A stretch of 47,256 nt of DNA, from IMG/VR virus record IMGVR_UViG_3300045988_140943. The stretch is one strand, 5' to 3'. Below are positions 5,071-46,602 of the stretch, piece after piece. Origin of the DNA: a virus. The translations under genes and the position numbers were made by a program. The stretch's first letter is position 1; the number at the start of each line of letters is the position of its first letter. Below the pieces are notes generated by a model. It searched no databases, had not been told where the DNA came from, and was given only the letters and a program-made list of their open reading frames with translations.

Positions 5071-5121
5071 TGTAAACATTACCCAAAATCTATTTACAAA
5101 ACCAGAAATCTGTGATATAAT
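5071..5121 (+). promoter_or_regulatory. consensus sigma-A-type promoter cassette P1 (upstream TGTAAACA, -35 TTTACA, extended -10 TGaTATAAT)
   Basis: TGTAAACA 5071..5078, TTTACA 5093..5098, 17-nt spacer, TATAAT 5116..5121, then a G-poor A-rich leader and cttacagaggtg SD. Confidence 0.8.
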
Positions 5122-5171
5122 ATAATTATAAAAATAAAATAAACAATTAATCTTACAGAGGTGAATAAGAT

Positions 5172-5384
5172 ATGGGTGAGAATATAAATGAAAGATATGA
5201 AAGTGAACAAAAAGCATTTATGAGAATTACTAATGATAACCTTAAATGTAAAGATTGTTTATATAAGTACGATGATACAACAATCTATGGTAATACTTCT
5301 AGATGTTCAATGTTCAATCATAAACCAGACAAAGTTATTCTTGGAGGAGAGTGTGATAAGTATGTTAAGTTCACTGGAAAATAA
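5172..5384 (+). CDS. small four-Cys (zinc-ribbon-like) protein, function unknown
   Basis: Served by the full promoter/leader/SD cassette. Cys pattern CKDC..RC..EC. Its 3' end overlaps the ARH start. Confidence 0.7.
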   Translation: MGENINERYESEQKAFMRITNDNLKCKDCLYKYDDTTIYGNTSRCSMFNHKPDKVILGGECDKYVKFTGK

Positions 5385-6258
5385 GATCTTAGGTTCTCTC
5401 TATGGTTTTGCCATAGGAGATGCAATGGGAGCTACAATGGAGTTTCAGGAAAAGATAACTGATGAATCCAAAAAGATTAAGGATTTAATTGGAGGAGGTT
5501 GGTTAAATCTTTCCCCTGGTGAAACTACAGATGATACCCAAATGTCAGTATGTGTTTTGAAGGCTTTGATGGAACAAGCTAACAATCCAGAAAAGAAATT
5601 TATGGACTTAGTTGCCAAAAATTTTATTGATTGGTTTGACTCTAATCCAAAAGATATTGGTAATACTTGTGCCAGAGTTTTGAGGGTAGCAAAAACATTA
5701 CTTGATGAGGGTAATGAAATTCATTATGTTGCAGGTAAAATGAAGCTAATTGCCTTTGATGTTAAAGCTCTTGGAAATGGAGCTTTGATGAGGGCTTTAC
5801 CTTGTGCATTGTTTAACAAGATCTGGAAAAACTTAGATCAAGCTTTTATGACCCACAATAATGTTAGTCAAGAAACTTGTATTATAACTTATGACGCTCT
5901 TATAAAGCATTTGCTTGTTCCTGTTAGTCCATTATGTTTTTCTTACGGTTTGCATTCCATATTTAAAATAAAGGAACCAATGGAACCAACTGGTTGTGTA
6001 ATAAATACAATGAATAATGCTTGTTACTATGCTCTTAATTGTAATTCCTTTGAGGAATGTATAATCAATGCAGTAAATGATGGTGGAGATGCTGATACGA
6101 TTGCTGCTATTGCAGGAAGTATTGCTGGTGCAATATTTGGATATGACAGTATTCCGAAACGTTGGAAAGAGGTATTTAAAACAAATCCTCTGAACTATGA
6201 AACAATTGAATTGTTTGAAAAGGTTCCCGAGGTTTTGGATAAGCTTAAAGTTTATTAA
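5362..6258 (+). CDS. ADP-ribosylglycohydrolase (ARH/DraG family)
   Basis: GFAIGDAMGATMEF, PGETTDDTQM, GGDADTIAAIAGSIAGA. The track's N-terminal extension from 5233 is an out-of-frame read through the upstream gene; ATG 5362 (or GTG 5353) starts the conserved domain. Confidence 0.9.
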   Translation: MLSSLENKILGSLYGFAIGDAMGATMEFQEKITDESKKIKDLIGGGWLNLSPGETTDDTQMSVCVLKALMEQANNPEKKFMDLVAKNFIDWFDSNPKDIGNTCARVLRVAKTLLDEGNEIHYVAGKMKLIAFDVKALGNGALMRALPCALFNKIWKNLDQAFMTHNNVSQETCIITYDALIKHLLVPVSPLCFSYGLHSIFKIKEPMEPTGCVINTMNNACYYALNCNSFEECIINAVNDGGDADTIAAIAGSIAGAIFGYDSIPKRWKEVFKTNPLNYETIELFEKVPEVLDKLKVY

Positions 6259-6263
6259 CATTT

Positions 6264-6314
6264 TGTAAACAATTCTTATTATCTATTTACTTTTGCCCAA
6301 TTTTATGTTATAAT
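6264..6314 (+). promoter_or_regulatory. promoter cassette P2
   Basis: TGTAAACA 6264..6271, TTTACT 6286..6291, 17-nt spacer, TGtTATAAT ending at 6314, leader plus cttacggaggtaaat. Confidence 0.8.
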
Positions 6315-6358
6315 AATATCATAAATAAAACAAAACTTAACTTACGGAGGTAAATAAA

Positions 6359-6766
6359 ATGGTTGCAATAAAGGATTGGTATCTCAACAAAATGGGTATG
6401 CTTCATATTAAAGGTTGGAGTCTTGATATTGTAAAGGAAACAGAGAAAGCTTGCTTAATATCCCACAAGTTTGATGAAAATTCTGAAATTACTTGGTGGG
6501 TCCCTAAATCAGTTATTATTGATAAGTGGGAGGTTGAAGAGAAAAATGTTTCAAATTTTGCATATCATAATTATCTAGTTGATATATATTGTAAGGCATA
6601 CGATGAAAATAAAATAGAAAACTATATTTGGAGTAATGGTTATAATAAATATAATGGTAAAAGTTTTATTCACAAGGAAACAACTAAGAAAATAAAAGAA
6701 ATCCTTGATAAAAACAATGTTGATTATATGAATAAAACAGAGTGGGTAAAGGATAGTCTGAGGTAA
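6359..6766 (+). CDS. hypothetical protein (moron between head morphogenesis and scaffold genes)
   Basis: Full cassette upstream; 135-aa ORF; no motif recognised. Confidence 0.75.
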   Translation: MVAIKDWYLNKMGMLHIKGWSLDIVKETEKACLISHKFDENSEITWWVPKSVIIDKWEVEEKNVSNFAYHNYLVDIYCKAYDENKIENYIWSNGYNKYNGKSFIHKETTKKIKEILDKNNVDYMNKTEWVKDSLR

Positions 6767-6785
6767 ATCTTCAGATTTTCTTTGT
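6758..6785 (+). terminator. weak hairpin plus T-rich tract overlapping the stop codon
   Basis: ctgagg/cttcag stem (one G-U), loop taaat, then attttctttg. Confidence 0.35.
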
Positions 6786-6809
6786 TAATAAGAAAGGTGA
6801 AAAGAGAAT

Positions 6810-21313: not shown

Positions 21314-21324
21314 TATAAATTCAG

Positions 21325-21367
21325 ATAAGACCTACTGGTATTAATTTACTGGTAGGTCTTATTTTTA
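21325..21367 (+). terminator. rho-independent terminator closing the late/lysis block
   Basis: 11-bp stem ataagacctac/gtaggtcttat followed by tttttat. Confidence 0.8.
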
Positions 21368-21389: not shown

Positions 21390-21418
21390 TATTTATTGTT
21401 TGTAAATTGTGTTATAAT
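21390..21418 (+). promoter_or_regulatory. promoter P4 (extended -10 TGtTATAAT, poor -35)
   Basis: tgtgttataat is identical to the -10 region of the other cassettes; TATAAT at 21413..21418. Confidence 0.55.
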
Positions 21419-22097: not shown

Positions 22098-22152
22098 TCG
22101 TAGCCCATACGATTATATAAATTTATTTTATTTTCAAAAGGAGGAATGATTT

Positions 22153-23051: not shown

Positions 23052-23075
23052 TGGCTTGCTCAAATAATTTTTAAG

Positions 23076-29799: not shown

Positions 29800-29801
29800 G
29801 A

Positions 29802-30473: not shown

Positions 30474-31228
30474 TGTTGGTAAGAAAATATCAAAATCTAA
30501 CGGAAATGTTTATGGAACTTAATCGGGAGATTATTTCAAAGCCATCCCAAATGCTGGATTATGTTCATGGAATTCTTGGTTACATAGATAACGTAGTATT
30601 AGCTTCCAAAAGTTGTGACTTTGATTTTGATTTATCCAAGGTGGGTTACAAGGTTGGTAAATGGAGTCATCTACTTAGAACCTATGTAGATTATGAAGGA
30701 TTGATTGAGTTTCATAAAAAACTAGAGGATTCAACTGCTCTTTCCTTGACCTATTATTTTAAACAAAAGAAAGTGAATAATGGATCTTGTTTAATTGCCA
30801 TTGTTGTGTCTAGAAATGACCGGAAAAAGAAATGGACAAAGGTTAATGTTTTATATCGTACGACAGAAGTCCAAAGAAGATTTGCTGCTGATTTAACATT
30901 GGTGCAATCTTTTATCAAAGAACTCCCTTCCTGTTGTGAAATCAACAGAATAATATTTTACTTCCCGCAAATGTATATAAATGCTAAGGTTTTAAATGGG
31001 TATTTTAATATATTTGGAATTCCAATGGAATCCTTGGATAAATCTAGTGAATGGGTTAAAACCATGATTAGAGATTATGAATTAAATTATGTTCCGGGAA
31101 GTAGAATAACTACTTACCAATCAATTGCTAGAATGCAGAGGTTAAGGTTGGGATTGACTAAGTACGATCCATTGCCATCCAAGTCATTATCAATAAGAAA
31201 ATATTTTGAATCCAAAAAGGAGAAATAA
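30473..31228 (+). CDS. divergent thymidylate-synthase-fold protein (function unclear)
   Basis: NGSCLIAIVVSR...VNVLYRTTEVQRRFAADLTLVQSFI aligns by eye with the PCH..QRSxD..N region of the ThyA family; TGATG overlap. Confidence 0.4.
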   Translation: MLVRKYQNLTEMFMELNREIISKPSQMLDYVHGILGYIDNVVLASKSCDFDFDLSKVGYKVGKWSHLLRTYVDYEGLIEFHKKLEDSTALSLTYYFKQKKVNNGSCLIAIVVSRNDRKKKWTKVNVLYRTTEVQRRFAADLTLVQSFIKELPSCCEINRIIFYFPQMYINAKVLNGYFNIFGIPMESLDKSSEWVKTMIRDYELNYVPGSRITTYQSIARMQRLRLGLTKYDPLPSKSLSIRKYFESKKEK

Positions 31229-31230
31229 AA

Positions 31231-31917
31231 ATGAGGATATATGTAGATTGGCCTGAGTGCTATGAAGAAGTAAAAAGAGATCTTGCTGAAATGGGTATTT
31301 TGGTTAAACCAAAAACAATGCAGGATAAGGTTATTGAAAACAATGAAGCCTATGAAACAATGGAGCTTCAGAATTATTCTTACTCTCTGTTAAATGCAAA
31401 ATCCAATGCAATTACAAGGGTTGTTCAGCCTTGGGCAGATGCGGAATTTGAAGAGAGAATAAATCCTGCTGGTAATATAAACCCTGGAGAAGCTTGGAAG
31501 TTAAGGGAAGATGTATGGACTGAGTATTTGCATGATGGCAAAATGGCTTATACATACAACGAAAGAATTATGTTTAATAACCAGCTTAATAAAATCATCA
31601 AACGGCTTAAGGAAGATCGGGACTCTAGACAGCTTTGGTTGTCAATTTGGAATCCAGCTATTGACCCTGATAAACTTGGTGGTATTTCAAGAGTTCCTTG
31701 TTCTTTAGGATATAATTTCCAGTTTAGAGACGGGAAACTTAATATGCACTATGTAATGCGGAGTTGTGATTTTAACACGCATTTTATAAATGATGTATAT
31801 TTGGCTATCAAGCTTTTGGAATATGTGGCAAAGGAATGTGGTATGGAAGTGGGCTCTTTCACCCACACAATGTTCTCCCTTCACGTTTACCGCAAGGATA
31901 TTTCAAACGTATTCTAA
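31231..31917 (+). CDS. ThyA-family enzyme (thymidylate synthase or dNMP hydroxymethylase-like)
   Basis: DRDSRQLWLSIWNP..D....RVPCSLGYNFQFRDGKLNMHYVMRSCDFNTHFINDVY...SLHVY. Confidence 0.7.
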   Translation: MRIYVDWPECYEEVKRDLAEMGILVKPKTMQDKVIENNEAYETMELQNYSYSLLNAKSNAITRVVQPWADAEFEERINPAGNINPGEAWKLREDVWTEYLHDGKMAYTYNERIMFNNQLNKIIKRLKEDRDSRQLWLSIWNPAIDPDKLGGISRVPCSLGYNFQFRDGKLNMHYVMRSCDFNTHFINDVYLAIKLLEYVAKECGMEVGSFTHTMFSLHVYRKDISNVF

Positions 31918-31918
31918 A

Positions 31919-31979
31919 TGTAAATAATCTGTTAACCTATAAATTTTCTATTGACTTTCTGGGAATGGTGTGATATAAT
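31919..31979 (+). promoter_or_regulatory. promoter cassette P7 (two upstream elements)
   Basis: TGTAAATA at 31919, TGTTAACC at 31930, TTGACT 31951..31956, 17-nt spacer, TGaTATAAT ending at 31979. Confidence 0.8.
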
Positions 31980-32017
31980 ATAAATATAATAAATAAAAAC
32001 TTACGGAGGTAAATATT

Positions 32018-32665
32018 ATGAACAACAAGGAAGTTATTGAAAAGGTTAAAAAGATTCTTGCTCTTGCAGAAAATAACCCAAATGAAAATGAAGCTTTAGC
32101 TGCTGCTCTTAAGGCTCAAAAGATGATGGCTAAATTCCATATTCAGGAAGAAGATCTTAGAGATGAGGTTACTGAATCTACAATTGATTCCATCGTTGCT
32201 AAACACAATGGAAAGACTGCAAAATGGAGATTGTCTTTAGCTTTGGTTATAGCAGCTAATTTTAGATGTAGGGTTTATATACAGAATGGTAAGGATGTTT
32301 GCTTTATGGGGTACGAGGAAGATGCTGTGATTTGTAAAGAGGTATTCCTTTCTATGTATTCTATTGGTGAAAAATTATCAAACAAACTTAAGAGAGAAAC
32401 TAGAAAATCTAAAGGTACAGCTACAGGTGTTAAGAATACATTCTGTTGTGGTTTTGTTGATGGAATAAAATCGGAATTGGAAAAGCAATGTACAGCTTTG
32501 GTTTTGATTGTTCCTAAGGAAGTCAATGAAGCCTTTGAAGCAAAGACGAGTAATGTAAAAAGAAAGAAAGTTTCTTTGAAAATCTCTAATGACTCAGAGG
32601 TTTATAATAAAGGGTTTGTAAGTGGTAAGAATTCTATTCAGGCAAGGGCAATTGAAAACAAGTAA
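32018..32665 (+). CDS. DUF2786-like phage protein
   Basis: VIEKVKKILALAENNPNENEALAAALKAQKMMAKF N-terminal signature. Confidence 0.65.
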   Translation: MNNKEVIEKVKKILALAENNPNENEALAAALKAQKMMAKFHIQEEDLRDEVTESTIDSIVAKHNGKTAKWRLSLALVIAANFRCRVYIQNGKDVCFMGYEEDAVICKEVFLSMYSIGEKLSNKLKRETRKSKGTATGVKNTFCCGFVDGIKSELEKQCTALVLIVPKEVNEAFEAKTSNVKRKKVSLKISNDSEVYNKGFVSGKNSIQARAIENK

Positions 32666-32674
32666 TAAATGATT

Positions 32675-32704
32675 CTAGGAGGGTTTTCCCTCCTAGTTTT
32701 ATTT
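32675..32704 (+). terminator. rho-independent terminator
   Basis: ctaggaggg/ccctcctag stem, loop tttt, then ttttattt. Confidence 0.8.
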
Positions 32705-32718
32705 AAGGAGGGAAAAAA

Positions 32719-35466
32719 ATGGGATTTGATTTGCATAGACACGATGAGGCAAGTAGCTTTGATGGATTTGGTAAACCAACAGAGTTAGCAAGCTTGGCTA
32801 AAGAGTATGGGTATACAATGTTAGCTGTAACAAATCATGGAAATACTACTAGCTTAGTTCAGCATTATTTGGCTTGTAAAGATGTGGGGATAAAACCAGG
32901 TCTTGGGGTAGAGGGATATTTTCTTCCGAAGTATAAACCCCAAGACAGAGGGTTCCATTTAATACTGTTGGCTAAAAATGCTCAAGGTTATGCCAATATG
33001 AACCGGATCCAGTACGAAGGTGAGAAACAGAAGTATTACAATCCTATTTGGGATTTTAAAATTCTGGAAAAATATCACGAAGGGCTGATTTGTTCTACTG
33101 CTTGTGTAGCGGGATATTTAGGACAATGTATAATTAAAGGTAAGATAGAAGTAGCTGCCAAATATCTTAAAAGAATGAAGTCAATATTTGGGGAAGATTT
33201 TTATGTTGAGATTCAGCCATATTCAATTTCTGAAGAAGGCCTTCAAGAAAAGATAAATGTTAAGTCCATTGAGTTGGCGAAGAAATTGGGTATCAAGTGT
33301 ATATTAACTTCAGATTCTCACCGAGGAAGAAAAGAAGATTTTGATACTTACCTGAAGATGCACGAGATCAAAAAACCTGGTAATGCTGAATGGTTAGAGC
33401 ATGTTACAAAAACTTATAAAGAACGTTATATGCCTAAGCCTGGGGAAATGATGAAAAGATTTTATAAAATGCACAAGAGTGACTTTGGGGAGGTTGAAGC
33501 CAAAAGATTGGCTAAGGAAATGGAAAGAAACCTTGATGAAATTGAAGCTAAGGTTGAGGATGATATATTCAAGGATTTTAAACAGACCTTGCCAAAATTC
33601 TCTGAAGAGGATTCCACAAAATTGCTTGTGGAAAAGTTAAGGCAAAGCATGAAACAAAGAGGTAAAACAACAAAAGCCTATATTAACAGAGTCAAGGAAG
33701 AACTGGAGGTTATAAAGTCTTTGGGATTCCAAGATTACTTTTTGATTGTAGCAGATTATGTTAACTGGGCAAAGAAACAAGGAATTACTGTTGGACCAGG
33801 AAGAGGTTCTGCTTGCAATTGTGAAGTAGCTTATTTTCTGGGTATTACGGAGGTAGACAGTTTGTATTTTGGACTAGACTTCCGAAGATTCCTCCGTAAA
33901 GATAAAAAGAAAATGCCTGATATTGATATTGACTTTGAAAGGTGCAGAAGACAAGAAGCCATTGAATATCTCATTAACAAATATCCAGGTCATACAGCAA
34001 GGATTGCTTCCTATGGTTTGTATAAGGTTGATAATCTTATCAATGACTTGGCCAAAGTTTGTGGGTTGCCAACTGATAGCAAGGTGGATCCGGAAATTGT
34101 TAAGTATAACAAGAAAATGATTGCAGACCTTAAGTCTTTGATTAAATCTTATATTGATGAGGACGGAATGTTAGATTCTAAAGGTTTGTTGCAAAATAAA
34201 ATTTCCAGATGTTTTAATTCCGATTATGATAACATAGTAAAACACTTTACCAAGCTCTATATGAAGTTGAGGTTTATTGGAACCCACGCAGCAGGTGTTG
34301 CTGTTACTGGCGGAAACATTTTGGATTTTACTTCTTTGAGAATTGATAAGAATGGTGATATTTTTACTAGTTTTGATTTGAACGATATGGAAAATATCCA
34401 CGTTATCAAGTTTGATATGTTAGGCCTGAGGACAATGGAAAGTACAGGGGAGTTGAGGGAGTTAACTGGTTGTTCTGGAATCACAGAGGAAATCGTAAAC
34501 GATCCAAAACTCTATGAGAATTTCAGAACAGGGCAAACTGATGGTGTATTCCAGTTTGACAAGGAAGCAGTAAGAGGAATTCTGAAGGAAATCAATTGTG
34601 ATTGTTTTGGAGATGTTATTGCAGCAAATGCGATGAACAGACCTGGCCCTTTGAAGATGAAACAGCCTCAGCTTTATGCGGATAACAAATTGGAAGGCGG
34701 AACTGGATCAGCTGATGATATTTATAAATACACCAAAGATTCATACGGTACAATCATTTACCAGGAACAAATCCAGCAAATTTGCGTAGGGGTTGGAGGT
34801 ATGACTTGGGGAGATGCGGATAAGGTAATGAAGATGATTGGTGGACAATCCCAGTCAGCTGACGCTAAAGCCCAATTTGAAAGAGACAAAAAAGAACTTC
34901 ATGATAAGTTCGTACAAGGAGCTGTTAAAAATGGCTTCCCAAAATCTAGAGCAGAAGAAATCTTTGATATGGTCCTTGTATATTCCTTCAATAAAGGTCA
35001 TGCTTGTGGCTATTCTCTAATATCTTTGGAGGAGATGTATTATAAAACCTATTTCCCTTTGGAGTATTGGTACACTCGTATTAAATATGCTCCGACTGAT
35101 TCTGATTATGATAGGTTTTGTGGTAAAGCTGTGGCAAATGATGTGGTTATATTTTTGCCTCACGCAAATTATTCGGCTTCTTTTACTTCGATTAGAGTTG
35201 TTGATGGTGATAGAGTTATCCAACAAAGCCTAAATCGAATTAAAGGTGTTGGTAATAAGGCTGCTGATTTTATAGTTGAGGAAAGAAAAAGAAATGGAAT
35301 TTTTACCTCATATGATAATTTTTATGATAGATGCAAAAGCCGAGTTGTTACCACGAGAGTAATATCTTTATTGGATGAAGCTGGGGCTTTAAATTTTAAT
35401 AAGAAAAAGTATTTACAGAGAGTTGTGAAATATAACTCTAGTTTGTATGCAAAAGCTTTGAGGTGA
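32719..35466 (+). CDS. DNA polymerase III alpha-like replicase (PHP domain plus polymerase core)
   Basis: FDLHRHDEASSFDG..AVTNHGN (PHP), GPGRGSACNCEVAYFLGITEVD, PDIDIDFE, AANAMNRPGP. Confidence 0.9.
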   Translation: MGFDLHRHDEASSFDGFGKPTELASLAKEYGYTMLAVTNHGNTTSLVQHYLACKDVGIKPGLGVEGYFLPKYKPQDRGFHLILLAKNAQGYANMNRIQYEGEKQKYYNPIWDFKILEKYHEGLICSTACVAGYLGQCIIKGKIEVAAKYLKRMKSIFGEDFYVEIQPYSISEEGLQEKINVKSIELAKKLGIKCILTSDSHRGRKEDFDTYLKMHEIKKPGNAEWLEHVTKTYKERYMPKPGEMMKRFYKMHKSDFGEVEAKRLAKEMERNLDEIEAKVEDDIFKDFKQTLPKFSEEDSTKLLVEKLRQSMKQRGKTTKAYINRVKEELEVIKSLGFQDYFLIVADYVNWAKKQGITVGPGRGSACNCEVAYFLGITEVDSLYFGLDFRRFLRKDKKKMPDIDIDFERCRRQEAIEYLINKYPGHTARIASYGLYKVDNLINDLAKVCGLPTDSKVDPEIVKYNKKMIADLKSLIKSYIDEDGMLDSKGLLQNKISRCFNSDYDNIVKHFTKLYMKLRFIGTHAAGVAVTGGNILDFTSLRIDKNGDIFTSFDLNDMENIHVIKFDMLGLRTMESTGELRELTGCSGITEEIVNDPKLYENFRTGQTDGVFQFDKEAVRGILKEINCDCFGDVIAANAMNRPGPLKMKQPQLYADNKLEGGTGSADDIYKYTKDSYGTIIYQEQIQQICVGVGGMTWGDADKVMKMIGGQSQSADAKAQFERDKKELHDKFVQGAVKNGFPKSRAEEIFDMVLVYSFNKGHACGYSLISLEEMYYKTYFPLEYWYTRIKYAPTDSDYDRFCGKAVANDVVIFLPHANYSASFTSIRVVDGDRVIQQSLNRIKGVGNKAADFIVEERKRNGIFTSYDNFYDRCKSRVVTTRVISLLDEAGALNFNKKKYLQRVVKYNSSLYAKALR

Positions 35467-35470
35467 TAAT

Positions 35471-35632
35471 GTGAATAGAGATTATTTTGTAATAATGAAT
35501 GAAAGTGATGAATTGTTACATAACACAAAAATAGGCGAAGCAGACACACTTGAAGAAGCTAGGGAATTGGAAGCAAAATGTAAAAAGGCATATCCAAACG
35601 CAAAAATAAAAATATATGAAATAATCGAATGA
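35471..35632 (+). CDS. 53-aa ORF, unknown
   Basis: GTG after GAGGTGA; fills the gap to the next gene; below the track's cutoff. Confidence 0.4.
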   Translation: MNRDYFVIMNESDELLHNTKIGEADTLEEARELEAKCKKAYPNAKIKIYEIIE

Positions 35633-35663
35633 TAAATTAAAATTATATTGTGAGGCTGATGTA

Positions 35664-36197
35664 ATGAAGGTAACAATTTTGAGATACCCAACTAAAGAGG
35701 ATTGGGAACGCTGTAAAATGATGGCGATGAATACGATTGGTAAGAACTGGGCGGGTGAAGTTACTGATATCTGGAAGGATAAAATTTTAAGAGCAAGACA
35801 CTCCCCGATAAGAACTTTGATGTTTACAATTAAAATGGAAGTTCCTTATTATGTGTCCGTGCATTTTGTTCGCCACAAATATGGGGTAGAACATTATGTA
35901 TCATCCCAGAGAAATGATAGGCAAGATAAATATGATCGGCGGGAAGCTAAACAGTCAATTCCAGTGATCCATATTATGGATGTTAATGCAGAGGAATTAA
36001 TGACCATTGCTAATCGAAGGTTGTGTAATCAAGCTGATGTTAAAACAAGGGAAGTTATGAACCTGATTGTGAAAGAGGTTTTGAAAACTAACCCCGAGTT
36101 TACTCCACACCTAGTTCCCCAATGTCTTAAGTTGGGTTTGGGAATTTGTCCAGAGTTCAAACCTTGCGGGAGAATGAGCAAAAAGGATGATAAATAA
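35664..36197 (+). CDS. ThyX-like (flavin-dependent thymidylate synthase family) protein, short form
   Basis: HSPIRTLMFTIKMEVPYYVSVHFVRHKYGVEHYVSSQRN resembles the ThyX RHR..S....S.R region; 177 aa is short for the family. Confidence 0.5.
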   Translation: MKVTILRYPTKEDWERCKMMAMNTIGKNWAGEVTDIWKDKILRARHSPIRTLMFTIKMEVPYYVSVHFVRHKYGVEHYVSSQRNDRQDKYDRREAKQSIPVIHIMDVNAEELMTIANRRLCNQADVKTREVMNLIVKEVLKTNPEFTPHLVPQCLKLGLGICPEFKPCGRMSKKDDK

Positions 36198-36204
36198 ATG
36201 ATCT

Positions 36205-36235
36205 TATGCCAGTTTAAACGCTGGCATATTTTTTA
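36205..36235 (+). terminator. rho-independent terminator
   Basis: tatgccag/ctggcata stem, then ttttttaat. Confidence 0.8.
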
Positions 36236-36245
36236 ATATTTCAAT

Positions 36246-36307
36246 TGTAAATAATTTATTAACTCTTGCTTTTATCTATTGACTTTTGCAAGATTATGCT
36301 GTATAAT
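36246..36307 (+). promoter_or_regulatory. promoter cassette P8 (two upstream elements)
   Basis: TGTAAATA at 36246, TATTAACT at 36257, TTGACT 36279..36284, 17-nt spacer, TATAAT 36302..36307. Confidence 0.75.
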
Positions 36308-36357
36308 ATATACATAAACAAAAACAAAATATATAAATCTTACGGAGGTAATTAACT

Positions 36358-36834
36358 ATGAAAACTACAAAGAAAACTATGATTGCTGAAATGCTCAACA
36401 AGGTAAACGCTAAGAAGAATGAAGAAGGTAACTTCTCAATAACAGCTGAAGCTCTTGATGAACTCAGAACACTGGTTGAAGAATCCGAGATGTTCAAGGT
36501 ATGCAAGAACAAGAAGGATGAGACTTTGTTCTCTATCTATGATAAGCCTGGCAAAACAAAGTTTGTAGTCCTTAAGCTTGTCAAGAAGACAAAGAAAACT
36601 ACAAACAAAACTACAAATGGTTTTGGAACAACCAAAGGTAAGTTTAAGTTTTACTCCATTGTTATCAAAGCCTTTGGTAGTGATGAGGTTAAGGAAATCA
36701 CTTCCCTTAATACTTGTGAACAGGTAAAGGCATTTCTTAAGCAACTCAACAAAAAGAATGTAGAATTCCTTAGAATCTACTCTGAAGGCAAAGAGGTAAG
36801 AAAATCAGCTTGGATCGAAAGAATCTCTGCATAA
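36358..36834 (+). CDS. hypothetical Lys-rich protein
   Basis: cttacggaggtaatt SD cassette; 158 aa. Confidence 0.75.
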   Translation: MKTTKKTMIAEMLNKVNAKKNEEGNFSITAEALDELRTLVEESEMFKVCKNKKDETLFSIYDKPGKTKFVVLKLVKKTKKTTNKTTNGFGTTKGKFKFYSIVIKAFGSDEVKEITSLNTCEQVKAFLKQLNKKNVEFLRIYSEGKEVRKSAWIERISA

Positions 36835-36850
36835 CAAAATTAAACACTAT

Positions 36851-36874
36851 TGGCTGGTTGAAATACACCAGCCA
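36851..36874 (+). other. RNA hairpin without a T tract (processing or stability element?)
   Basis: tggctggt/accagcca 8-bp stem directly before cattacggaggtaaac. Confidence 0.5.
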
Positions 36875-36896
36875 TCCATTACGGAGGTAAACATTC

Positions 36897-37307
36897 ATGA
36901 GACTTTGGCATAAGGATTTAATCGAATATCTTCCGAGACAGCAACTGTTAGCTCAATGGAGGGAGTGCTGTTGTATAGCACGAAACATTAAAGTAAATGG
37001 TACCCCAAACCATTTGCTAGTAAACAAAATTCTTAAATACCCCATAACTCATTTTGTAACCTATTCAATGCTGGTTGCCAATGAAATGGAACGCAGGGGT
37101 TATAAGGTAGATCTTAATAAATTCACAAAATATCTTTGTGGACCATCCTATTGGACTTTTGTGCCATATGATGATTTGTTTGCCAATTGGCACGATAAAC
37201 GCTATCTTACTCAATGCTATTATAACCTGGAAGAAAAATACGATTGTGGTGGTATTCCCAAAGATGAGTGGGAAAAGGTTGTCCAAGGTTATTACAAATA
37301 TAAATGA
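36897..37307 (+). CDS. pyrimidine-dimer DNA glycosylase-like protein (DenV/TIGR02328-type)
   Basis: MRLWHKDLIEYLPRQQLLAQWRECCCIARN...NEMERRGYKV. Confidence 0.65.
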   Translation: MRLWHKDLIEYLPRQQLLAQWRECCCIARNIKVNGTPNHLLVNKILKYPITHFVTYSMLVANEMERRGYKVDLNKFTKYLCGPSYWTFVPYDDLFANWHDKRYLTQCYYNLEEKYDCGGIPKDEWEKVVQGYYKYK

Positions 37308-37318
37308 GGTTTGATAAA

Positions 37319-38260
37319 ATGGCAAAAACAAATAAAGCTGAGATCATTAAGCTTTGTAATGAGATAAACAAAAAAGAAGGCGAAGGTTCTATTTATTCAA
37401 TTGGATCTAAACACGCCAACCTTAATATCAATCGTTGGTCAACGGGAATTGAAGACCTAGACAATATCATTGGTGGTGGTATGCCAGAGGGAAGGGTTGT
37501 TGAAATCTTTGGCCCTGAAAGCTCAGGTAAAACAACTTTGATGTATCATCTCTGTGGCCTTCACGATCTTTGTCTAGATATTCCGATTGAAGGCACATTT
37601 GACGCTGAAAGAGCAAAGGTGTTTGGAAATCGTCCAAAACAGATGCTAATATATAGAGCAAAATACGGGGAGGACGCTTTCAACAAAACAATTAAATTTG
37701 CTAAAGCTGGAATCCCCTTGATTGGCATTGACTCCGTTCCAAGTATGATTCCAAAAGATGACGCTGAGAAAGTTTTTAAATCTGTTGAGAAGGATTCCAT
37801 TGAGGAACAAAGAATTGGCGGTGTTGCTCGATTGATGAATAAATATCTTCCAGTTGCTGAAGAAATAATTGAGGTAACAGGAACTACCCTTATATTTGTC
37901 AATCAGGTAAGGGATAAAATGAACGCTTTGATGTTTGGGGAAAAAACTGATACTCCTGGTGGTAGAAAACTAAAACACGCTTGTTCCTTGCGTATTCAGG
38001 TAGCTCGAAGAGCTTGGATTGAAATTCCAAATAAAGATCCAAGAAATTCAGCTAATTCCAAAAAGATCGGAATGATAATGAAGTGTAAGGTGGTCAAATC
38101 AAAGGTTTGCAACCCGATGGGTGAATGTGAAATCCCACTGATCTTTGAAAGAGGTTTTGTTTCTTTTGATGATGTTCCAGCAATCAGAAAAGAAATGATG
38201 AAAGCCGAAGCTGCTAAGTATGGCAAAAGAATTCCAAAGGAGTTTATGGATGATGAATGA
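37319..38260 (+). CDS. recA: RecA-family recombinase
   Basis: GGGMPEGRVVEIFGPESSGKTTL, LIFVNQVRDK, FGEKTDTPGGRKLKHACSLRIQV; ATG 37319 after GAGGT. Confidence 0.85.
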   Translation: MAKTNKAEIIKLCNEINKKEGEGSIYSIGSKHANLNINRWSTGIEDLDNIIGGGMPEGRVVEIFGPESSGKTTLMYHLCGLHDLCLDIPIEGTFDAERAKVFGNRPKQMLIYRAKYGEDAFNKTIKFAKAGIPLIGIDSVPSMIPKDDAEKVFKSVEKDSIEEQRIGGVARLMNKYLPVAEEIIEVTGTTLIFVNQVRDKMNALMFGEKTDTPGGRKLKHACSLRIQVARRAWIEIPNKDPRNSANSKKIGMIMKCKVVKSKVCNPMGECEIPLIFERGFVSFDDVPAIRKEMMKAEAAKYGKRIPKEFMDDE

Positions 38261-38564
38261 TAAGTTTGAACTTTCTAGAGAATATTCTGAAGAAGCGGAT
38301 AAGATGAGAAAAAATCGGGTGGAGGTTTCTTTCCATAAATATGGGCCAGCAAGAATAAACTTTGGAGAAAGATTGGTAGATGCAATTAAATCTTCTGATT
38401 TATGTGTTGAAAAATATAATAAAACTGGTAATACAGAATACTTGCTAGATGCAATGAACTACTTGATGTTTGAATTTATGTTCCCCCAAAAAGAAGGAGC
38501 ATATTTTAAAGCAACTGATTCGAAGGAATCTGCCGGCCATGTAGGTAAAGCTTATAAAGAATAA
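38250..38564 (+). CDS. hypothetical protein (possible all-alpha NTP-pyrophosphatase-like)
   Basis: AAAGGAG SD before ATG 38250; SFHKYG...YNKTGNTEYLLDAMNYLMFEF. Confidence 0.6.
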   Translation: MMNDKFELSREYSEEADKMRKNRVEVSFHKYGPARINFGERLVDAIKSSDLCVEKYNKTGNTEYLLDAMNYLMFEFMFPQKEGAYFKATDSKESAGHVGKAYKE

Positions 38565-38589
38565 AATTAAATGAAAGAGGTAAATTAAA

Positions 38590-38808
38590 ATGAGCAAGAA
38601 GTATTTTAAATATCTTAATGAAGATGTTTCCGCAAATGATTTTTTTAAACTCTCAAACGAAAGAATCAGGAAAGATAAAAAGCTTAAGGAAGAAAGAAGG
38701 ATGTTGCTGTTTTGTAAGCTGTCTACAATCTTGTGTATTATGATGGCAGCATTTCTTTTGGTTTGTATGCTTCTTGGCTTTTTGGATATTTTAAGAATGC
38801 TTCCTTGA
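38590..38808 (+). CDS. small membrane protein
   Basis: AAGAGGT SD; C-terminal TM LSTILCIMMAAFLLVCMLLGFL. Confidence 0.6.
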   Translation: MSKKYFKYLNEDVSANDFFKLSNERIRKDKKLKEERRMLLFCKLSTILCIMMAAFLLVCMLLGFLDILRMLP

Positions 38809-38818
38809 GGAGAGTGCA

Positions 38819-39292
38819 ATGGAAAGAATCAGTAAAAGAAAATATTATTTGAATATTGCAAGAGCAGTATCAAAAAGAAGCAGTTGTTTAAAACGCAGAT
38901 ATGGCTGTATCATTGTTAAGAATGATGAGATAATTGCAACAGGCTACAATGGTTCCCCAAGAGGTGTAGAAAATTGTTGTGATAAAGGAAAATGTCCTAG
39001 GTTCTCTAAACCACACAATTCTGGAGATTATTCAGATTGTCCTTCTGTCCATGCTGAACAAAATGCAATGTTATCTGCTAGTCGTAAAGATATGATTGGC
39101 GCTACAATGTATTTGGCAGGCGATGAGATAAATTCTTCAGACCCATCTAATTCTTACCCCTGTTGGATTCAGTTGGTTAAATGCGAACCTTGCCCAATAT
39201 GTGCAAGAATGATTCTCAATGCTGGAATCTCTGAGGTAGTTACATTATATGATACATATACAAGAGATGATATAGCCAAGAGATTAATCTAA
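38819..39292 (+). CDS. dCMP (deoxycytidylate) deaminase
   Basis: HAEQNAM and PCPICARMILNAGI zinc-binding motifs; RSSCLKRRYGCIIV. Confidence 0.9.
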   Translation: MERISKRKYYLNIARAVSKRSSCLKRRYGCIIVKNDEIIATGYNGSPRGVENCCDKGKCPRFSKPHNSGDYSDCPSVHAEQNAMLSASRKDMIGATMYLAGDEINSSDPSNSYPCWIQLVKCEPCPICARMILNAGISEVVTLYDTYTRDDIAKRLI

Positions 39293-42117: not shown

Positions 42118-42130
42118 ATTATTAATTTTT

Positions 42131-42181
42131 TGTAAATTACTCCAAATCCCTATTGACAAATCAAAAGACTTGTGTTATAAT
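42131..42181 (+). promoter_or_regulatory. promoter cassette P9
   Basis: TGTAAATT at 42131, TTGACA 42153..42158, 17-nt spacer, TGtTATAAT ending at 42181. Confidence 0.8.
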
Positions 42182-42243
42182 AATATTAAATTAATAAATA
42201 ACATTTGTTTATTATAACCTACCAAAAGAAGGTTAAATAAAAT

Positions 42244-42576
42244 TTGAAATTTAAAAATCCATATTGGAATATAACAACTAAAATCCAAATGTTAGAGAAC
42301 TGGTTATTAGTTCACTGTTATTTATACTATGTACTTGGTATTTCAGTTGTAGATGATTACACATACGACTGTAATTCTCAACAATTAGCTAGATTGTTAA
42401 ATAAATATCCTGAAGAATCAGAAAAGACAATTTATGCTTATGTATTCTATGATTTTGATCCAAGTACTGGTTATGATTTGTACTCAAGGTTATTACCCAA
42501 AGAACAAGAAATAATAACAATGACTGGTGATAGAATAAAGATGTTAGTTGACCAAGGAGAAATTGAAAAGAAGTAA
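42244..42576 (+). CDS. hypothetical protein resembling the N-terminal Ia helix pair of NAD-dependent DNA ligase
   Basis: WLLVHCYLYYVLGISVVDDYTYDCNSQQLARLLNKYPEE; start uncertain (TTG 42244 or ATG 42289). Confidence 0.5.
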   Translation: MKFKNPYWNITTKIQMLENWLLVHCYLYYVLGISVVDDYTYDCNSQQLARLLNKYPEESEKTIYAYVFYDFDPSTGYDLYSRLLPKEQEIITMTGDRIKMLVDQGEIEKK

Positions 42577-44091: not shown

Positions 44092-44106
44092 ATTCTATTA
44101 AATTTT

Positions 44107-44157
44107 TGTAAACATTCCTCAAACCCTATTTACAAACAATAATTTTTGTGTTATAAT
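44107..44157 (+). promoter_or_regulatory. promoter cassette P10
   Basis: TGTAAACA at 44107, TTTACA 44129..44134, 17-nt spacer, TGtTATAAT ending at 44157; about 97 nt from the end of the -10 to the ATG. Confidence 0.8.
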
Positions 44158-44254
44158 ATAATCATAATCAATAAACCAAATAAATAAATTACTGATGTGA
44201 ATTTGGTTGACACGGTTAAAACAAAATCTAATTATTAAAAAGGAGAAATTTATT

Positions 44255-44938
44255 ATGGCAAAGAATTGGACAATGGCAGAAGCAATGAAGGTAATCTCAG
44301 CAGCAGACCTTAACTCAGAGGAGATTGCAGATCTTTATAAGAGATTCCCAAATGTGGCAAGACTTATGACGGCTATTGCTTCCGGTGACACAATGGCAGC
44401 TAAGATGCTTATTCATTTCCTTCCTGAATGGGCAACTGTTGGTAAGCTTGAGAAGGCTATCAAGAATGCAGGTGAAGCTGACGACAATGCAGAAGATGAT
44501 GTTACTTCCGGCGATGAGGAAGTTGAGGAAGAGACTGAGGAGGAGGAAGCTCCTAAGCCAAAGAAGAAGGCAAGAAAGTCAAAGAAGGCTGCCAAGGTTG
44601 AGGAACCAGAGGACGAGGAAAACGACGATTCTGATGAGGAAGATTCCGAAACAACTGATTATGAGTCAATGACTGCTCAGGAACTCTTCAAGCTTTGCAA
44701 GGAGAAGGGTATTGCTGTAAAGCCAAAGAGAAGTGTTAAGTCCTATATTGAGAAGCTGAAGGCTGCTGAGGATGTACAGGACAACGATTCTGATTCTGAC
44801 GATTGGACAGACGATGAGGTTGAGGAAACACCAAAGGCAAAGAAGGCTGTTAAGCCTGCTGCTGAAAAGGCTGCTCCAAAGAAGGCAAAGAAGGCTGCTA
44901 AGGTTGAAGACGACGACGATGAAGATTGGGATATTTAA
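44255..44938 (+). CDS. highly acidic/Lys-rich protein with an HeH (SAP/Rho_N-like) motif and a DDW-type acidic tail
   Basis: AAAGGAG SD before ATG 44255; YESMTAQELFKLCKEKGIAVKPKRSVKSYIEKL; tail EDDDDEDWDI. Confidence 0.75.
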   Translation: MAKNWTMAEAMKVISAADLNSEEIADLYKRFPNVARLMTAIASGDTMAAKMLIHFLPEWATVGKLEKAIKNAGEADDNAEDDVTSGDEEVEEETEEEEAPKPKKKARKSKKAAKVEEPEDEENDDSDEEDSETTDYESMTAQELFKLCKEKGIAVKPKRSVKSYIEKLKAAEDVQDNDSDSDDWTDDEVEETPKAKKAVKPAAEKAAPKKAKKAAKVEDDDDEDWDI

Positions 44939-44983
44939 TTAAATAAACCACTCCATTTTTAAACTTCCTATATATTTTACTAA

Positions 44984-45013
44984 AGGCCGGCTTGGTTGAT
45001 CTAGGCCGGTCCT
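44984..45013 (+). other. GC-rich hairpin after the acidic-protein gene (no T tract)
   Basis: aggccgg ... ccggtcct pairing with one bulge; a local GC island in AT-rich DNA. Confidence 0.4.
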
Positions 45014-45043
45014 ATTAGTAAATAAGGAAATGAGGTAATCAAA

Positions 45044-45409
45044 ATGAAAGTAACTTTAGAAGATATTATGAAGCTTGACTGCTCAGATGAAAGTCAAAAA
45101 GAGAAGCTCATAAAAGTAATAAGAAAAATAAAACCATTTGACAGGTACTCCTTAGATGAGGAAATTCCAATGGATATGTTGGAAAAATATATGAATAAGG
45201 CAATGGATAAGTATTGTTTTAAGATCGGCTACATATTCCACAACAATAGTAATATTCCAAGGTGTTGGACAATTTCTTTAAGAGATGTGGTTGGCAAAAC
45301 ATATTTAGATACTATTTATGCTATTTCCATCAATGAACTTATGATGAAAGTGGTAATCAGAATCTATTTTGCCATAAGGGATAAAGAGGTGAAGAAAAGA
45401 AAGAAATGA
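45044..45409 (+). CDS. hypothetical protein
   Basis: GAGGTAA SD; 121 aa. Confidence 0.7.
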   Translation: MKVTLEDIMKLDCSDESQKEKLIKVIRKIKPFDRYSLDEEIPMDMLEKYMNKAMDKYCFKIGYIFHNNSNIPRCWTISLRDVVGKTYLDTIYAISINELMMKVVIRIYFAIRDKEVKKRKK

Positions 45410-45924
45410 GTGAAATAAAAATATTTACCGATGGTGCTTGCTCTGGAAATCCAGGAATTGGAGGATGGTCTTCTATATTCTGTTTTTCCAGTGGTGTAAA
45501 AATCTATTCTGGAAATGCAATACACACAACAAACAACAGGATGGAATTAACTGCAATCGTTGAAACATTGGCATTTATTTATACTCTGTATAACAAAAAC
45601 AAATGGATTCGGAATGAGGTTGACCAATTTAAAATATGCTCAGACTCTGCATATTGTATCAATGCAATCAATAACAATTGGGTTCAAAAATGGCGAATGA
45701 ATGATTGGAAAACCCAATCCGGTGAAGAAGTGAAGAACAAAGATCTTTGGTTATTATTCTGGAGGTCCTACCTGAAGTGTAAAAATGAAATCCCTATTGT
45801 GTTTGAAAAGGTTGCAGGTCATTCGGGAAATCCCCAAAATGAATTAGCTGACAAGGTAGCTAAAAAAGAGGTAGCAGATTTGAAGGTGTTTTTAATTGAA
45901 AATGATGAAACAATTTCTAATTAA
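45406..45924 (+). CDS. rnhA: ribonuclease HI
   Basis: IFTDGACSGNPGIGGW, NNRMELTAIVETL, SDSAYCINAI, GHSGNPQNELADKVAK. Confidence 0.9.
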   Translation: MSEIKIFTDGACSGNPGIGGWSSIFCFSSGVKIYSGNAIHTTNNRMELTAIVETLAFIYTLYNKNKWIRNEVDQFKICSDSAYCINAINNNWVQKWRMNDWKTQSGEEVKNKDLWLLFWRSYLKCKNEIPIVFEKVAGHSGNPQNELADKVAKKEVADLKVFLIENDETISN

Positions 45925-46285
45925 TATCTATCATAAAGCAAAAAGAATTCTTGGTCAAGCTCAAAATCTATGTTTAGATGTGATTCTCATAACGATCATC
46001 ACAGTGGAATCAAAAATTTATGATGTATATCCACTTTACGTGTTTTTACTTTCCTTTATAGTTCTCTATTTAATTTATAATTTCTTTAGGTGGGTGTTGA
46101 ATAGACCACTTTTTGATAAGCTAAAGTCTCCACCCAAAAGATTTACAACAAATGAAAGTTCTGATGTCTGTAAAGTAGATGCTAAAAGAATTCCAGAAAT
46201 GATAAAATGGGTGAATGAATTGGAGAATGAATTAGAGAATCAAGGCTATTATGACAATCCAAAGGTAAAGAATAAAGTAAAATAA
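45902..46285 (+). CDS. membrane protein, unknown function
   Basis: VYPLYVFLLSFIVLYLIYNFF TM; start uncertain (TTG 45896, ATG 45902 or ATG 45905). Confidence 0.55.
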   Translation: MMKQFLINIYHKAKRILGQAQNLCLDVILITIITVESKIYDVYPLYVFLLSFIVLYLIYNFFRWVLNRPLFDKLKSPPKRFTTNESSDVCKVDAKRIPEMIKWVNELENELENQGYYDNPKVKNKVK

Positions 46286-46297
46286 CTATTAACATTT

Positions 46298-46348
46298 TGT
46301 AAACAATGAATTAAACCTATTTACTTTTGCCTAAATCTATGTTATAAT
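46298..46348 (+). promoter_or_regulatory. promoter cassette P11
   Basis: TGTAAACA at 46298, TTTACT 46320..46325, 17-nt spacer, TGtTATAAT ending at 46348. Confidence 0.8.
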
Positions 46349-46398
46349 ATATATAATAAATAATAAAAAATATACAAATCTTATGGAGGTAAGATACT

Positions 46399-46602
46399 AT
46401 GAATGAACATTCAGAACTTAAGAAAATGATTAAGGATTTAATCAAGCAAAAGAAAATCGAAAACAAATATGAAGGTATTATTGAAATATATCCCCATAAA
46501 TTTACAAACACAATTGTTCTTAATGCTTTCCTTGTTAAACTCAAACAAGAGTATAATATACATAAACTAACAAATACCTGGATAAGAGCATTTAAGAAAT
46601 AA
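46399..46602 (+). CDS. hypothetical 67-aa protein
   Basis: cttatggaggtaaga SD cassette. Confidence 0.7.
   Translation: MNEHSELKKMIKDLIKQKKIENKYEGIIEIYPHKFTNTIVLNAFLVKLKQEYNIHKLTNTWIRAFKK

Follow-up and report, generated by a model that had tools for sequence, protein, structure and literature searches.

Genome and promoter cassettes

The window analysed here is the whole 47,256-base stretch of IMG/VR virus record IMGVR_UViG_3300045988_140943, and the subject of the analysis is a tandem box, two direct repeats of a TGTAAA-like hexamer, found upstream of nine promoter cassettes in it. The ends of the window (1-59 and 47198-47256) are an identical 59-nt direct overlap, from which a circular assembly of 47,197 bp was derived; the DNA belongs to a gut or rumen phage of virulent type, 47.2 kb long and assembled as a circle. 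Its GC content is 34%, and all genes are carried on the + strand. Mapping with PHROG and Pfam identified terminase, portal, head-morphogenesis, scaffold and major capsid proteins and an endolysin, a replication set (primase, single-stranded DNA-binding protein (SSB), nucleotide-metabolism genes and a DNA polymerase of 915 amino acids (aa)), and a UvsX-like recombinase, dCMP deaminase, methyltransferase, Cas4-type exonuclease, RuvC-like resolvase and RNase H. No sigma factor, helix-turn-helix (HTH) or winged-helix protein or other transcription regulator was recognised in the PHROG and Pfam scans of approximately 70 phage open reading frames (ORFs). Megablast against GenBank phages returned zero matches, so no close relative is present there, and the capsid has 58% amino-acid identity to Clostridium phages CS266P1-4, which are distant relatives only.

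Both strands were scanned for the core pattern TTKACW-N17-TATAAT. The -35 hexamers of the nine cassettes start at 5093, 6286, 24219, 25373, 31951, 36279, 42153, 44129 and 46320 (all +), which confirmed the nine sites named P1, P2 and P5 to P11 in a first-pass annotation of this DNA; outside them there was one chance match without boxes in the terminase gene (1106), and the - strand of the window had zero. A composite pattern (TGTAAA-N13-CTATTKAC-N18-TATAAT, ≤2 mismatches) gave 8 matches vs. 0.01 expected. The nine cassettes match sigma-70-type hexamers at 10-12 of 12 core positions with a spacer of exactly 17 nt in 9/9, and in a generic promoter scan, which showed no overall excess of promoter-like sites, the top scorers were exactly these nine. 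The extended -10 had been ascribed to all nine; a TRTG extension is present in eight, and P8 lacks the TG (ATGCTGTATAAT). P4, previously described as sharing only the extended -10, does so, with TATTTA at the -35 position and no tandem box. Seven nt after the -10, a pyrimidine followed by A was found in 9/9 cassettes, and this A was taken as the inferred start.

Leaders are 32-91 nt long and 48-59% A, and the seven short ones are almost G-free before the ribosome-binding site (RBS), in agreement with the earlier description. The distance from the 15-mer CTTAYGGAGGTAAAT to ATG is 3-5 nt rather than the 5-7 nt given before, and that from GGAGG to ATG is 8-10 nt. CTTAYRGAGGT occurs 7 times in the genome, at promoter-proximal ribosome sites only, and the shorter TTACGGAGGTAAA is used by three internal genes too. 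An RBS hairpin (UUAY-GGAG-GUAA) was predicted in most leaders and is weak (-1.5 to -2.6 kcal/mol, z ~ -0.8), P11 being the only leader to reach -5.2 kcal/mol (z -2.15). The long leaders of P6 (25428-25451), P9 (42192-42214) and P10 (44174-44208) have hairpins of about -8 to -10 kcal/mol (z -0.7 to -2.0); none matched Rfam, and that of P6 is retained in a sibling contig. The first gene of P9 has a TTG start, and its product has a DNA-ligase-like N-terminal domain. These data support reading the cassettes as promoter-leader-RBS units of the housekeeping-sigma type. As such they are strong promoters of an ordinary phage kind, and what makes them interesting is the tandem box upstream.

The tandem box

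When aligned on the -35, all nine promoters carry two direct repeats, TRTWAA-N5-TRTWAA, with an 11-bp phase. Box 1 starts 33 nt and box 2 22 nt upstream of the -35 hexamer (at P7, 32 and 21 nt), and the distance from the box end to the -35 is 15-16 nt in all nine. With the inferred start as +1, the 17-bp element covers approximately -68 to -52 and is centred near -60; between the boxes and the -35, at about -44 to -40, there is a short A- or T-tract. In six promoters TATTAA or TGTTAA is followed by N5 and TGTAAA, and in three (P5, P7, P8) TGTAAA is followed by N5 and TGTTAA or TATTAA. The first-pass annotation had described an upstream element at 22 nt in six copies and at 32-33 nt, with a second copy, in three; the positions stand, but the second box is present in all nine and had been missed in six. 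Because all nine carry two boxes, the 22-nt and 32-33-nt classes are one layout with the hexamer variants swapped.

T1, T3, A5 and A6 of both hexamers are conserved in 9/9, and flanking and intervening positions in 4-6/9. When the 60-nt upstream regions were shuffled 20,000 times, the mean number of promoters with both boxes was 0.0013, vs. 9/9 observed. The inter-box spacer is T-rich (NTTTY) in promoters of the TATTAA/TGTTAA-then-TGTAAA sub-type, the proximal tract being mostly A-rich (P1, P6, P9, P10, P11); promoters of the TGTAAA-then-TRTTAA sub-type (P5, P7, P8) combine a YAATY spacer with a T-rich proximal tract. Box 1 begins 1-5 nt past the preceding stop codon in 7/9 cassettes, which marks it as the upstream edge of the functional unit, and box 1 of P2 overlaps the stop. 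The cassettes had also been said usually to follow closely on the previous stop codon without a terminator; that holds for the short distance in these seven, while P5 and P8 (and also P4) lie directly behind good intrinsic terminators. The sibling contig 147269 was too similar to give footprinting any power (whole promoters ~90% identical, boxes 100%, gap 94%).

The repeat resembles the consensus of the response regulator WalR/VicR, TGTWAH-N5-TGTWAH, for which strong VicR footprints include TGTAAA-N5-TGTTAA (nlmC) and TATTAA-N5-TGTTAT (bmsH) (PMC4168254). The strict consensus has 4 matches in the window vs. 0.71 expected, three of which are P5, P6 and P7; the relaxed form TRTWAH-N5-TRTWAH has 19 vs. 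4.3 expected, including all nine promoters. The other six promoters each have one G-to-A mismatch to the strict consensus, as in the footprinted bmsH site.

Coordinates of the cassettes, of P4 and of the terminators are as follows.

5060-5174, +, P1 cassette: box 1 TATTAA 5060-5065; box 2 TGTAAA 5071-5076; -35 TTTACA 5093-5098; TGTGA-TATAAT, -10 5116-5121; inferred start A5128; RBS CTTACAGAGGT 5152; ATG 5172
6253-6361, +, P2 cassette: box 1 TATTAA 6253-6258; box 2 TGTAAA 6264-6269; -35 TTTACT 6286-6291; TATGT-TATAAT, -10 6309-6314; inferred start A6321; RBS CTTACGGAGGT 6341; ATG 6359
21323-21364, +, intrinsic terminator with an 18-bp stem: end of the lysis module, just before P4
21401-21454, +, P4: extended -10 only (TGTGTTATAAT 21408-21418), no -35 match and no tandem box; single TGTAAA 21401-21406 in the spacer; AAGGAG RBS; ATG 21452
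23074-23100, terminator: between the P4 unit (21452-23051) and genes 23126-24147
24155-24179, +, intrinsic terminator: directly upstream of P5
24186-24307, +, P5 cassette: box 1 TGTAAA 24186-24191; box 2 TGTTAA 24197-24202 (perfect TGTWAH-N5-TGTWAH); -35 TTTACA 24219-24224; -10 24242-24247; inferred start A24254; RBS 24285; ATG 24305
25340-25486, +, P6 cassette: box 1 TGTTAA 25340-25345; box 2 TGTAAA 25351-25356 (perfect consensus); -35 TTTACA 25373-25378; -10 25396-25401; inferred start A25408; 76-nt leader with hairpin; RBS 25466; ATG 25484
31919-32020, +, P7 cassette: box 1 TGTAAA 31919-31924; box 2 TGTTAA 31930-31935 (perfect consensus, 1 nt nearer the -35); -35 TTGACT 31951-31956; -10 31974-31979; inferred start A31986; RBS 32000; ATG 32018
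32675-32696, bidirectional terminator separating the P7 gene from the DNA polymerase gene: GC-rich hairpin with a perfect 9-bp stem and a T-run on each strand
36205-36228, +, intrinsic terminator: directly upstream of P8, end of the DNA polymerase unit
36246-36360, +, P8 cassette: box 1 TGTAAA 36246-36251; box 2 TATTAA 36257-36262; -35 TTGACT 36279-36284; -10 36302-36307, no TG; inferred start A36314; RBS 36339; ATG 36358
42120-42246, +, P9 cassette: box 1 TATTAA 42120-42125; box 2 TGTAAA 42131-42136; -35 TTGACA 42153-42158 (12/12 core); -10 42176-42181; inferred start A42188; 56-nt structured leader; plain AAGG RBS; TTG 42244
44096-44257, +, P10 cassette: box 1 TATTAA 44096-44101; box 2 TGTAAA 44107-44112; -35 TTTACA 44129-44134; -10 44152-44157; inferred start A44164; 91-nt leader with hairpin; AAAGGAG RBS; ATG 44255
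46287-46401, +, P11 cassette: box 1 TATTAA 46287-46292; box 2 TGTAAA 46298-46303; -35 TTTACT 46320-46325; -10 46343-46348; inferred start A46355; RBS CTTATGGAGGT 46380; ATG 46399

Position of the box in other phages

An IMG/VR scan for TGTAAA at -22 plus the core pattern returned many unrelated contigs, several of which had a second TGTAAA, not required by the search, exactly 11 nt upstream. Further promoters of those contigs, found by -35 and -10 alone, carried perfect boxes at exactly -33. The distance was then left free (TGTAAA-N5-TGTWAA-N6..30-TTKAC-N18-TATAAT), giving 55 dereplicated matches, of which 4, 10, 24 and 3 had gaps of 14, 15, 16 and 17 nt, respectively; other gaps (6-30) had 0-3, with small satellites approximately 10 bp off. 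When both spacings were free (unbiased first 80 loci), a spacer of 5 with a gap of 15-16 was dominant (24/57 matches), and the 5-nt spacer was present in 29/57. Among phage matches with the 16-nt gap the -35 was TTGACA in 16/24.

The opposite orientation, TTTACA-N5-TTWACA, was rarer (45 dereplicated matches, complete scan) and has its own register, with a gap of 8-10 nt to the -35 and satellites at 19-21; such boxes often occur several per contig (IMG/VR loci L479, L107, L193, L518 and others). In seven IMG/VR contigs of 80-170 kb (L122, L150, L183, L198, L235, L264, L265) box 2 runs into a perfect or near-perfect canonical catabolite-responsive element (cre), TGTAAACGATTACA, with the distance to the -35 unchanged. 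In a 126-kb IMG/VR contig (L117), more than 10 promoters have an A-tract type, CAAAAA-N5-TGAAAA-N5-CAAAAACCCC, and two have TATGAA-N5-TGTAAA. Both types are near-identical in their -10 and start regions, which suggests two promoter classes in one genome.

Relatives of the phage were 79 IMG/VR loci retrieved by DNA polymerase (48-99% identity). The core promoter pattern was found 187 times on the gene strand vs. 4 on the other, and A at +7 after the -10 was present in 81% of 159 related-phage promoters. Most relatives have phased A- and T-tracts upstream, e.g., GAAAAAATTTTCAAAAACCTA-TTTACA; across the 159 promoters, A has maxima at -29, -19 and -8 relative to the -35 hexamer and T at -23 and -13. 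Among 152 dereplicated promoters outside the window's own species (≤1 mismatch), boxes were found at offset -33 in three, all from L020, and once at -43. Within the polymerase family the box type is lineage-restricted and patchy, occurring in this phage's lineage and in L020.

Clostridia chromosomes

One-genome-per-species bacterial genomes were scanned for the tandem-box pattern with a gap of 15-16 nt. At least 120 host loci carried it, vs. at most ~7 expected by chance (composition estimate, even if the whole collection had 35% GC). Approximately 70 of 80 among the matches listed were Clostridia, namely Ruminococcus (R. albus 8, R. flavefaciens), Blautia, Oscillospiraceae, Acutalibacteraceae, Lachnospira and Eubacteriales, and few were Erysipelotrichaceae or other gut metagenome-assembled genomes of the class Bacilli. 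The sites stand before ordinary chromosomal genes. Pfam analysis of 86 downstream ORFs gave four each of MarR and NTP_transferase, three each of Ribosomal_S15, CorA, Fe-ADH, FGGY kinases and Fur, and two each of Ribosomal_S2, DnaA, MurA-type, ZnuA and pyrophosphatase; three further sites precede tRNAs. The third -35 position is G in 76% of host matches (TTGACA over TTTACA), and beyond the fixed bases the sites have only an A/T-rich flank in common. In 259 unselected promoter-like matches in host loci no clear box enrichment was found, this set being noisy and mostly made up of chance sites inside genes.

The boxes make up a distinct module at a locked position, which also occurs in Clostridia housekeeping promoters and in many unrelated phages. 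The earlier view of a helically phased upstream element of UP or activator type is borne out to the extent that the position of the element is fixed in this genome, in phages unrelated to this one and on chromosomes of Clostridia. Two further proposals, that TGTAAA mirrors the -35 box and that a dimeric factor might bridge the two, were not supported: the -35 is its reverse complement in 4/9 promoters only, TTGACA predominates elsewhere, and the conserved unit is a direct repeat of 11-bp period, not an inverted repeat.

Transcription units and neighbouring genes

The nine cassettes and the weaker P4 are predicted to define the transcription units of the phage. P11, the sole cassette that precedes the two terminase genes (small and large) once the map is closed into a circle, would drive the 67-aa ORF, a weak hairpin, both terminase genes, portal and head-morphogenesis genes, and P1 a 70-aa ORF and the ADP-ribosylglycohydrolase gene (5233-6258). 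Scaffold, capsid, tail and lysis genes would be transcribed from P2 as far as the terminator at 21323-21364, and 21452-23051 from P4. P5 would act next, followed by P6 for two tRNAs, primase, SSB and nucleotide genes. The P7 unit probably ends at the bidirectional terminator (32675-32696), the DNA polymerase gene follows it, and P8, P9 and P10 would then act in turn. The DNA polymerase gene lacks its own cassette promoter. In sequence the nine cassettes show nothing that would separate 'early' from 'late' promoters, so temporal control, if any, would come from elsewhere (read-through, terminators, small ORFs of unknown function). The single TGTAAA in the P4 spacer (approximately -23 to -18) would be in a repressing position if a box-binding protein exists.

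A small-terminase-like ORF (from ~46686) crosses the circle junction to 261 and abuts the large terminase gene. The two tRNAs of the P6 unit, tRNA-Leu(UAA) and tRNA-Gln(UUG), are at 25887-25973 and 26208-26283 (+); they were the only hits of the Rfam scan, which found no known leader RNA. A 176-aa protein (26332-26862) has a Rho_N domain at its N terminus (E = 7e-6) and no other recognisable domain. The head-morphogenesis protein (3145-5058) weakly matches Alt-like RNA polymerase ADP-ribosyltransferases (phrog_802, E = 2e-4), and the P1 unit, next after it, encodes the ADP-ribosylglycohydrolase (E = 4e-44); the two may form a writer/eraser pair within the structural module. The region 28518-39292 holds a dense nucleotide-metabolism set (dNMP kinase-like protein, MazG-type NTP pyrophosphohydrolase, a 251-aa protein of unknown function (phrog_34294), a short ThyA-like protein (228 aa), a Thy1 (ThyX) fragment, pyrimidine-dimer glycosylase and dCMP deaminase), which hints at a modified pyrimidine in the phage DNA.

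Candidate readers of the box

Each cassette consists of a strong promoter of sigma-A/sigma-70 type, an unstructured A-rich leader and a near-optimal RBS. The tandem box would be bound by a host protein, which would recruit RNA polymerase or stabilise it while sitting in a class-I-type position, the A- or T-tract at approximately -44 to -40 being left for the C-terminal domain of the polymerase alpha subunit (alpha-CTD) between the bound protein and sigma region 4. A protein on one helix face in a class I arrangement is suggested by the rigid 6-5-6 repeat, the 1-bp tolerance, the ~10-bp satellites, the orientation-specific registers, the centre near -60 and the A/T tract near -42. Because the repeat is head-to-tail with an 11-bp period and fits in sequence, the binder would be a dimer of an OmpR/PhoB-family winged-helix response regulator, with the essential WalR/VicR as the leading candidate. 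The phage would have copied the upstream promoter module of housekeeping genes of gut and rumen Clostridia, and the copied module would tie its transcription to the strong, growth-coupled promoters of the host. We infer protein binding at the boxes, activation and the identity of the binder from sequence. The combination of a host-protein site in a class-I-type position, an OmpR/PhoB-family reader best matched by WalR/VicR and a module copied from Clostridia is our tentative first choice, rated a little short of an even chance.

Several observations weigh against it. Near-consensus cores should not strictly need an activator. One half-site has A instead of G at position 2 in 6/9 window sites, and the base after the hexamers is mostly C or T, whereas VicR of Streptococcus mutans prefers A. 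The WalR consensus was defined in Bacilli, and Bacillus, Staphylococcus and Streptococcus made up 0/80 among the host matches listed. A mixed set of host genes lies downstream of the element (RpsO, RpsB, DnaA, pyrophosphatase, Fe-ADH, sugar kinases, CorA, Fur, MarR, tRNAs), and cell-wall hydrolases (NlpC/P60, CHAP, LysM, amidase), the hallmark of WalR regulons, were not enriched among the 86 host ORFs. Close relatives fill the box space with phased A-tracts (AAAAA-TTTT-CAAAAACCTA) that have a classical UP-element look. The relatives and L117 together suggest that the A-tract and box types can stand in for each other in function, and this agrees equally well with alpha-CTD contact and with a transcription factor.

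The mixed housekeeping genes, the restriction to Clostridia and the interchangeability with A-tracts argue against WalR, so direct alpha-CTD contact stays a serious rival. The boxes would then be a lineage-specific UP element contacted by the two alpha-CTDs of the Clostridia RNA polymerase, with no separate factor; we regard this as possible but on balance unlikely. The UP-element consensus of Escherichia coli consists of A/T-rich tracts at -40 to -60, AAAWWTWTTTTNNNAAANNN. When compared with it, the relatives fit well, their 159 promoters holding phased A-tracts in the register of the boxes, and the window fits in A-tract phase only, with its invariant T-G-T and a reach to -68. The boxes lie at -68 to -52, over and just upstream of the distal UP subsite, with the A- or T-tract at the proximal subsite, and in L117 the A-tract repeats are in frame with TGTAAA boxes. 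The host genes behind the element, such as those for ribosomal proteins, tRNAs, DnaA and pyrophosphatase, are typical strong housekeeping genes, and transcription start site (TSS) data from Clostridium phytofermentans contain an A-rich UP-like region upstream of the -35 (PMC5171806). However, T1, G2 and T3 are invariant or nearly so, whereas known alpha-CTD contacts are minor-groove A/T-tracts without a conserved G; the spacer composition varies between the promoter sub-types with the hexamers fixed; and the 1-bp lock, with a separate register for each orientation, is tighter than would be expected of flexibly tethered alpha-CTDs.

An improbable alternative is that TGTAAA and a TTTACA -35 together form a CcpA cre-var site, which would place the phage promoters under catabolite control. 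In Clostridium acetobutylicum CcpA binds TGTAAA/TTTACA cores with spacers of 0-40 nt, and in one natural promoter the spacer is 15 nt long, which matches the geometry found here (Yang et al., 2017, PMC5263246). Four window promoters, those with a TTTACA -35, fit this pattern (P1, P6 and P10 with N16; P5 with N27), box 2 extends into the perfect canonical cre TGTAAACGATTACA in some jumbo-type phage contigs, and several host genes behind the element belong to carbon metabolism. Against this, the TTTACA partner is absent in 5/9 window promoters (TTTACT, TTGACT or TTGACA), most box-bearing promoters elsewhere have TTGACA, and a direct repeat is not expected to be read by a LacI-family dimer. CG after box 2 was not enriched in 100 host sites and is missing from the host logo, so these are not canonical cre, and the window sites are at least 3 positions off it. 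Published cre-var sites may in part be an upstream box plus a -35 element.

It is very improbable that a phage-encoded DNA-binding protein reads the boxes and times or boosts phage transcription. The phage has many small ORFs without recognisable function, including the one of 67 aa that follows P11 and others after P4 and P5, but no HTH, winged-helix or sigma domain was detected in the scans described above, and because the element has the same position in unrelated phages and on Clostridia chromosomes, a phage-specific protein cannot explain it. Least credible is shared ancestry alone, a duplicated promoter cassette with functionless boxes: mobile promoter cassettes are known from T4-type phages and several blocks occur in the same order here (including CTA before the -35 and CTTAY before the RBS), but positions between the blocks are near random (4-6/9) vs. 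9/9 for hexamer positions, and the same position lock is found in independent lineages and host chromosomes.

To return to the preferred reading, a host regulator acting on a copied Clostridia module, a wider form of it would take in the RNA polymerase itself. The module would be read in gut and rumen Clostridia by an essential, WalR-like growth-coupled response regulator or through a Clostridia-specific RNA polymerase feature, would drive ribosomal, tRNA, dnaA and central-metabolism genes, and would have been copied by many unrelated phages, here to every transcription unit, some published cre-var sites being the module plus a TTTACA -35; we hold this to be doubtful, though conceivable.

Significance

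Should the tandem box prove to be a general activating module in promoters of Clostridia, it would be a simple, portable part for strong promoters in gut and rumen anaerobes that are hard to engineer. It would also provide a sequence signature for class-level prediction of phage hosts, a testable route by which phages sense the growth state of the host, and grounds for re-reading the CcpA cre-var sites published for clostridia and the WalR sites predicted there. TSS studies limited to 50 bp upstream of starts would have missed it. For this phage alone, the result is a complete transcription-unit map.

Relation to known systems

The closest likeness is to the WalR/VicR (YycF) boxes of Firmicutes, which have the same hexamers, 5-nt spacer, head-to-tail repeat and 11-bp period. 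In Staphylococcus aureus, WalR sites that lie upstream of the -35 are activating in either orientation, and dnaA and ribosomal genes belong to the direct regulon (PMC10746227); in position, all nine window sites agree with the rule that the site lies upstream of the -35 at activated promoters. In Clostridioides difficile, TGTAAA-TAAAC-TGTAAA and TGTTAC-AAAAT-TGTAAA occur at Wal-responsive genes (PMC9210968 supplement). In contrast to WalR sites, the phage boxes stand at one fixed distance from near-consensus promoters, on all cassette promoters of a phage and before varied housekeeping genes rather than cell-wall hydrolase genes, and within the sample they occur almost only in Clostridia. Another OmpR-family regulator of C. 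difficile, RR_1586, recognises DRTTAAGNWWW direct 11-bp repeats (PMC6222199). It shares the Clostridia setting and the TRTTAA-type 11-bp direct repeat, and the TATTAA and TGTTAA half-sites are similar, but it needs G at position 7, where the boxes have C or T, and TGTAAA is not its preferred hexamer.

Other regulators were rejected. PhoP boxes of Bacillus subtilis are TTHACA repeats of 11-bp period, four of them on the coding strand replacing the -35; the window has two repeats only, in the reverse orientation, upstream of an intact consensus -35. The CodY box, AATTTTCWGAAAATT, is matched at 12-13/15 positions at P1, P6 and P9 but with a mismatch at the invariant T of TGTAAA, and other promoters fit poorly. 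The canonical CcpA cre (TGWAANCGNTNWCA, a 14-bp palindrome with a central CG) fails at three or more defining positions in the window sites. Motifs of TnrA/GlnR, Rex, Spo0A and LytTR type do not fit a 6-5-6 direct repeat, TGTAAA as a divergent - strand -35 has no -10 at the right distance, and a mobile or duplicated (PeSL-like) promoter cassette was discarded on the inter-block positions, only 4-6/9 of which are identical.

UP elements and curved A-tract regions are found at strong bacterial and phage promoters, such as rrnB P1 and early promoters of Bacillus phages. They share with the box element the location (-40 to -70), helical phasing, very strong promoters and, in related phages, the same register; they are degenerate A/T-rich tracts, whereas the box element has an invariant T-G-T, a discrete 6-5-6 repeat and a 1-bp position lock. 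The CcpA cre-var site of solventogenic clostridia (TGTAAA-Yx-TTTACA, PMC5263246) has the identical core hexamer, and the TTTACA of its natural 15-nt-spacer site could be a -35, as at P1, P6 and P10. It is an inverted repeat with free spacing, whereas the boxes are a direct repeat with fixed spacing and a partner that is usually TTGACA or TTKACT.

Host response-regulator sites are known in virulent phages, namely Spo0A boxes in the early promoters of phi29 and PhoB pho boxes upstream of cyanophage pstS and phoA. In these, too, promoters of virulent phages are coupled to the physiology of the host through one of its two-component response regulators, but few promoters are involved and the effect is repression (Spo0A) or stress induction (PhoB), whereas here the site stands on every cassette promoter in an activating position. 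A full-text literature search, including TSS papers, did not find the tandem box described as a general promoter architecture. The tandem box nevertheless matches a known regulator consensus.

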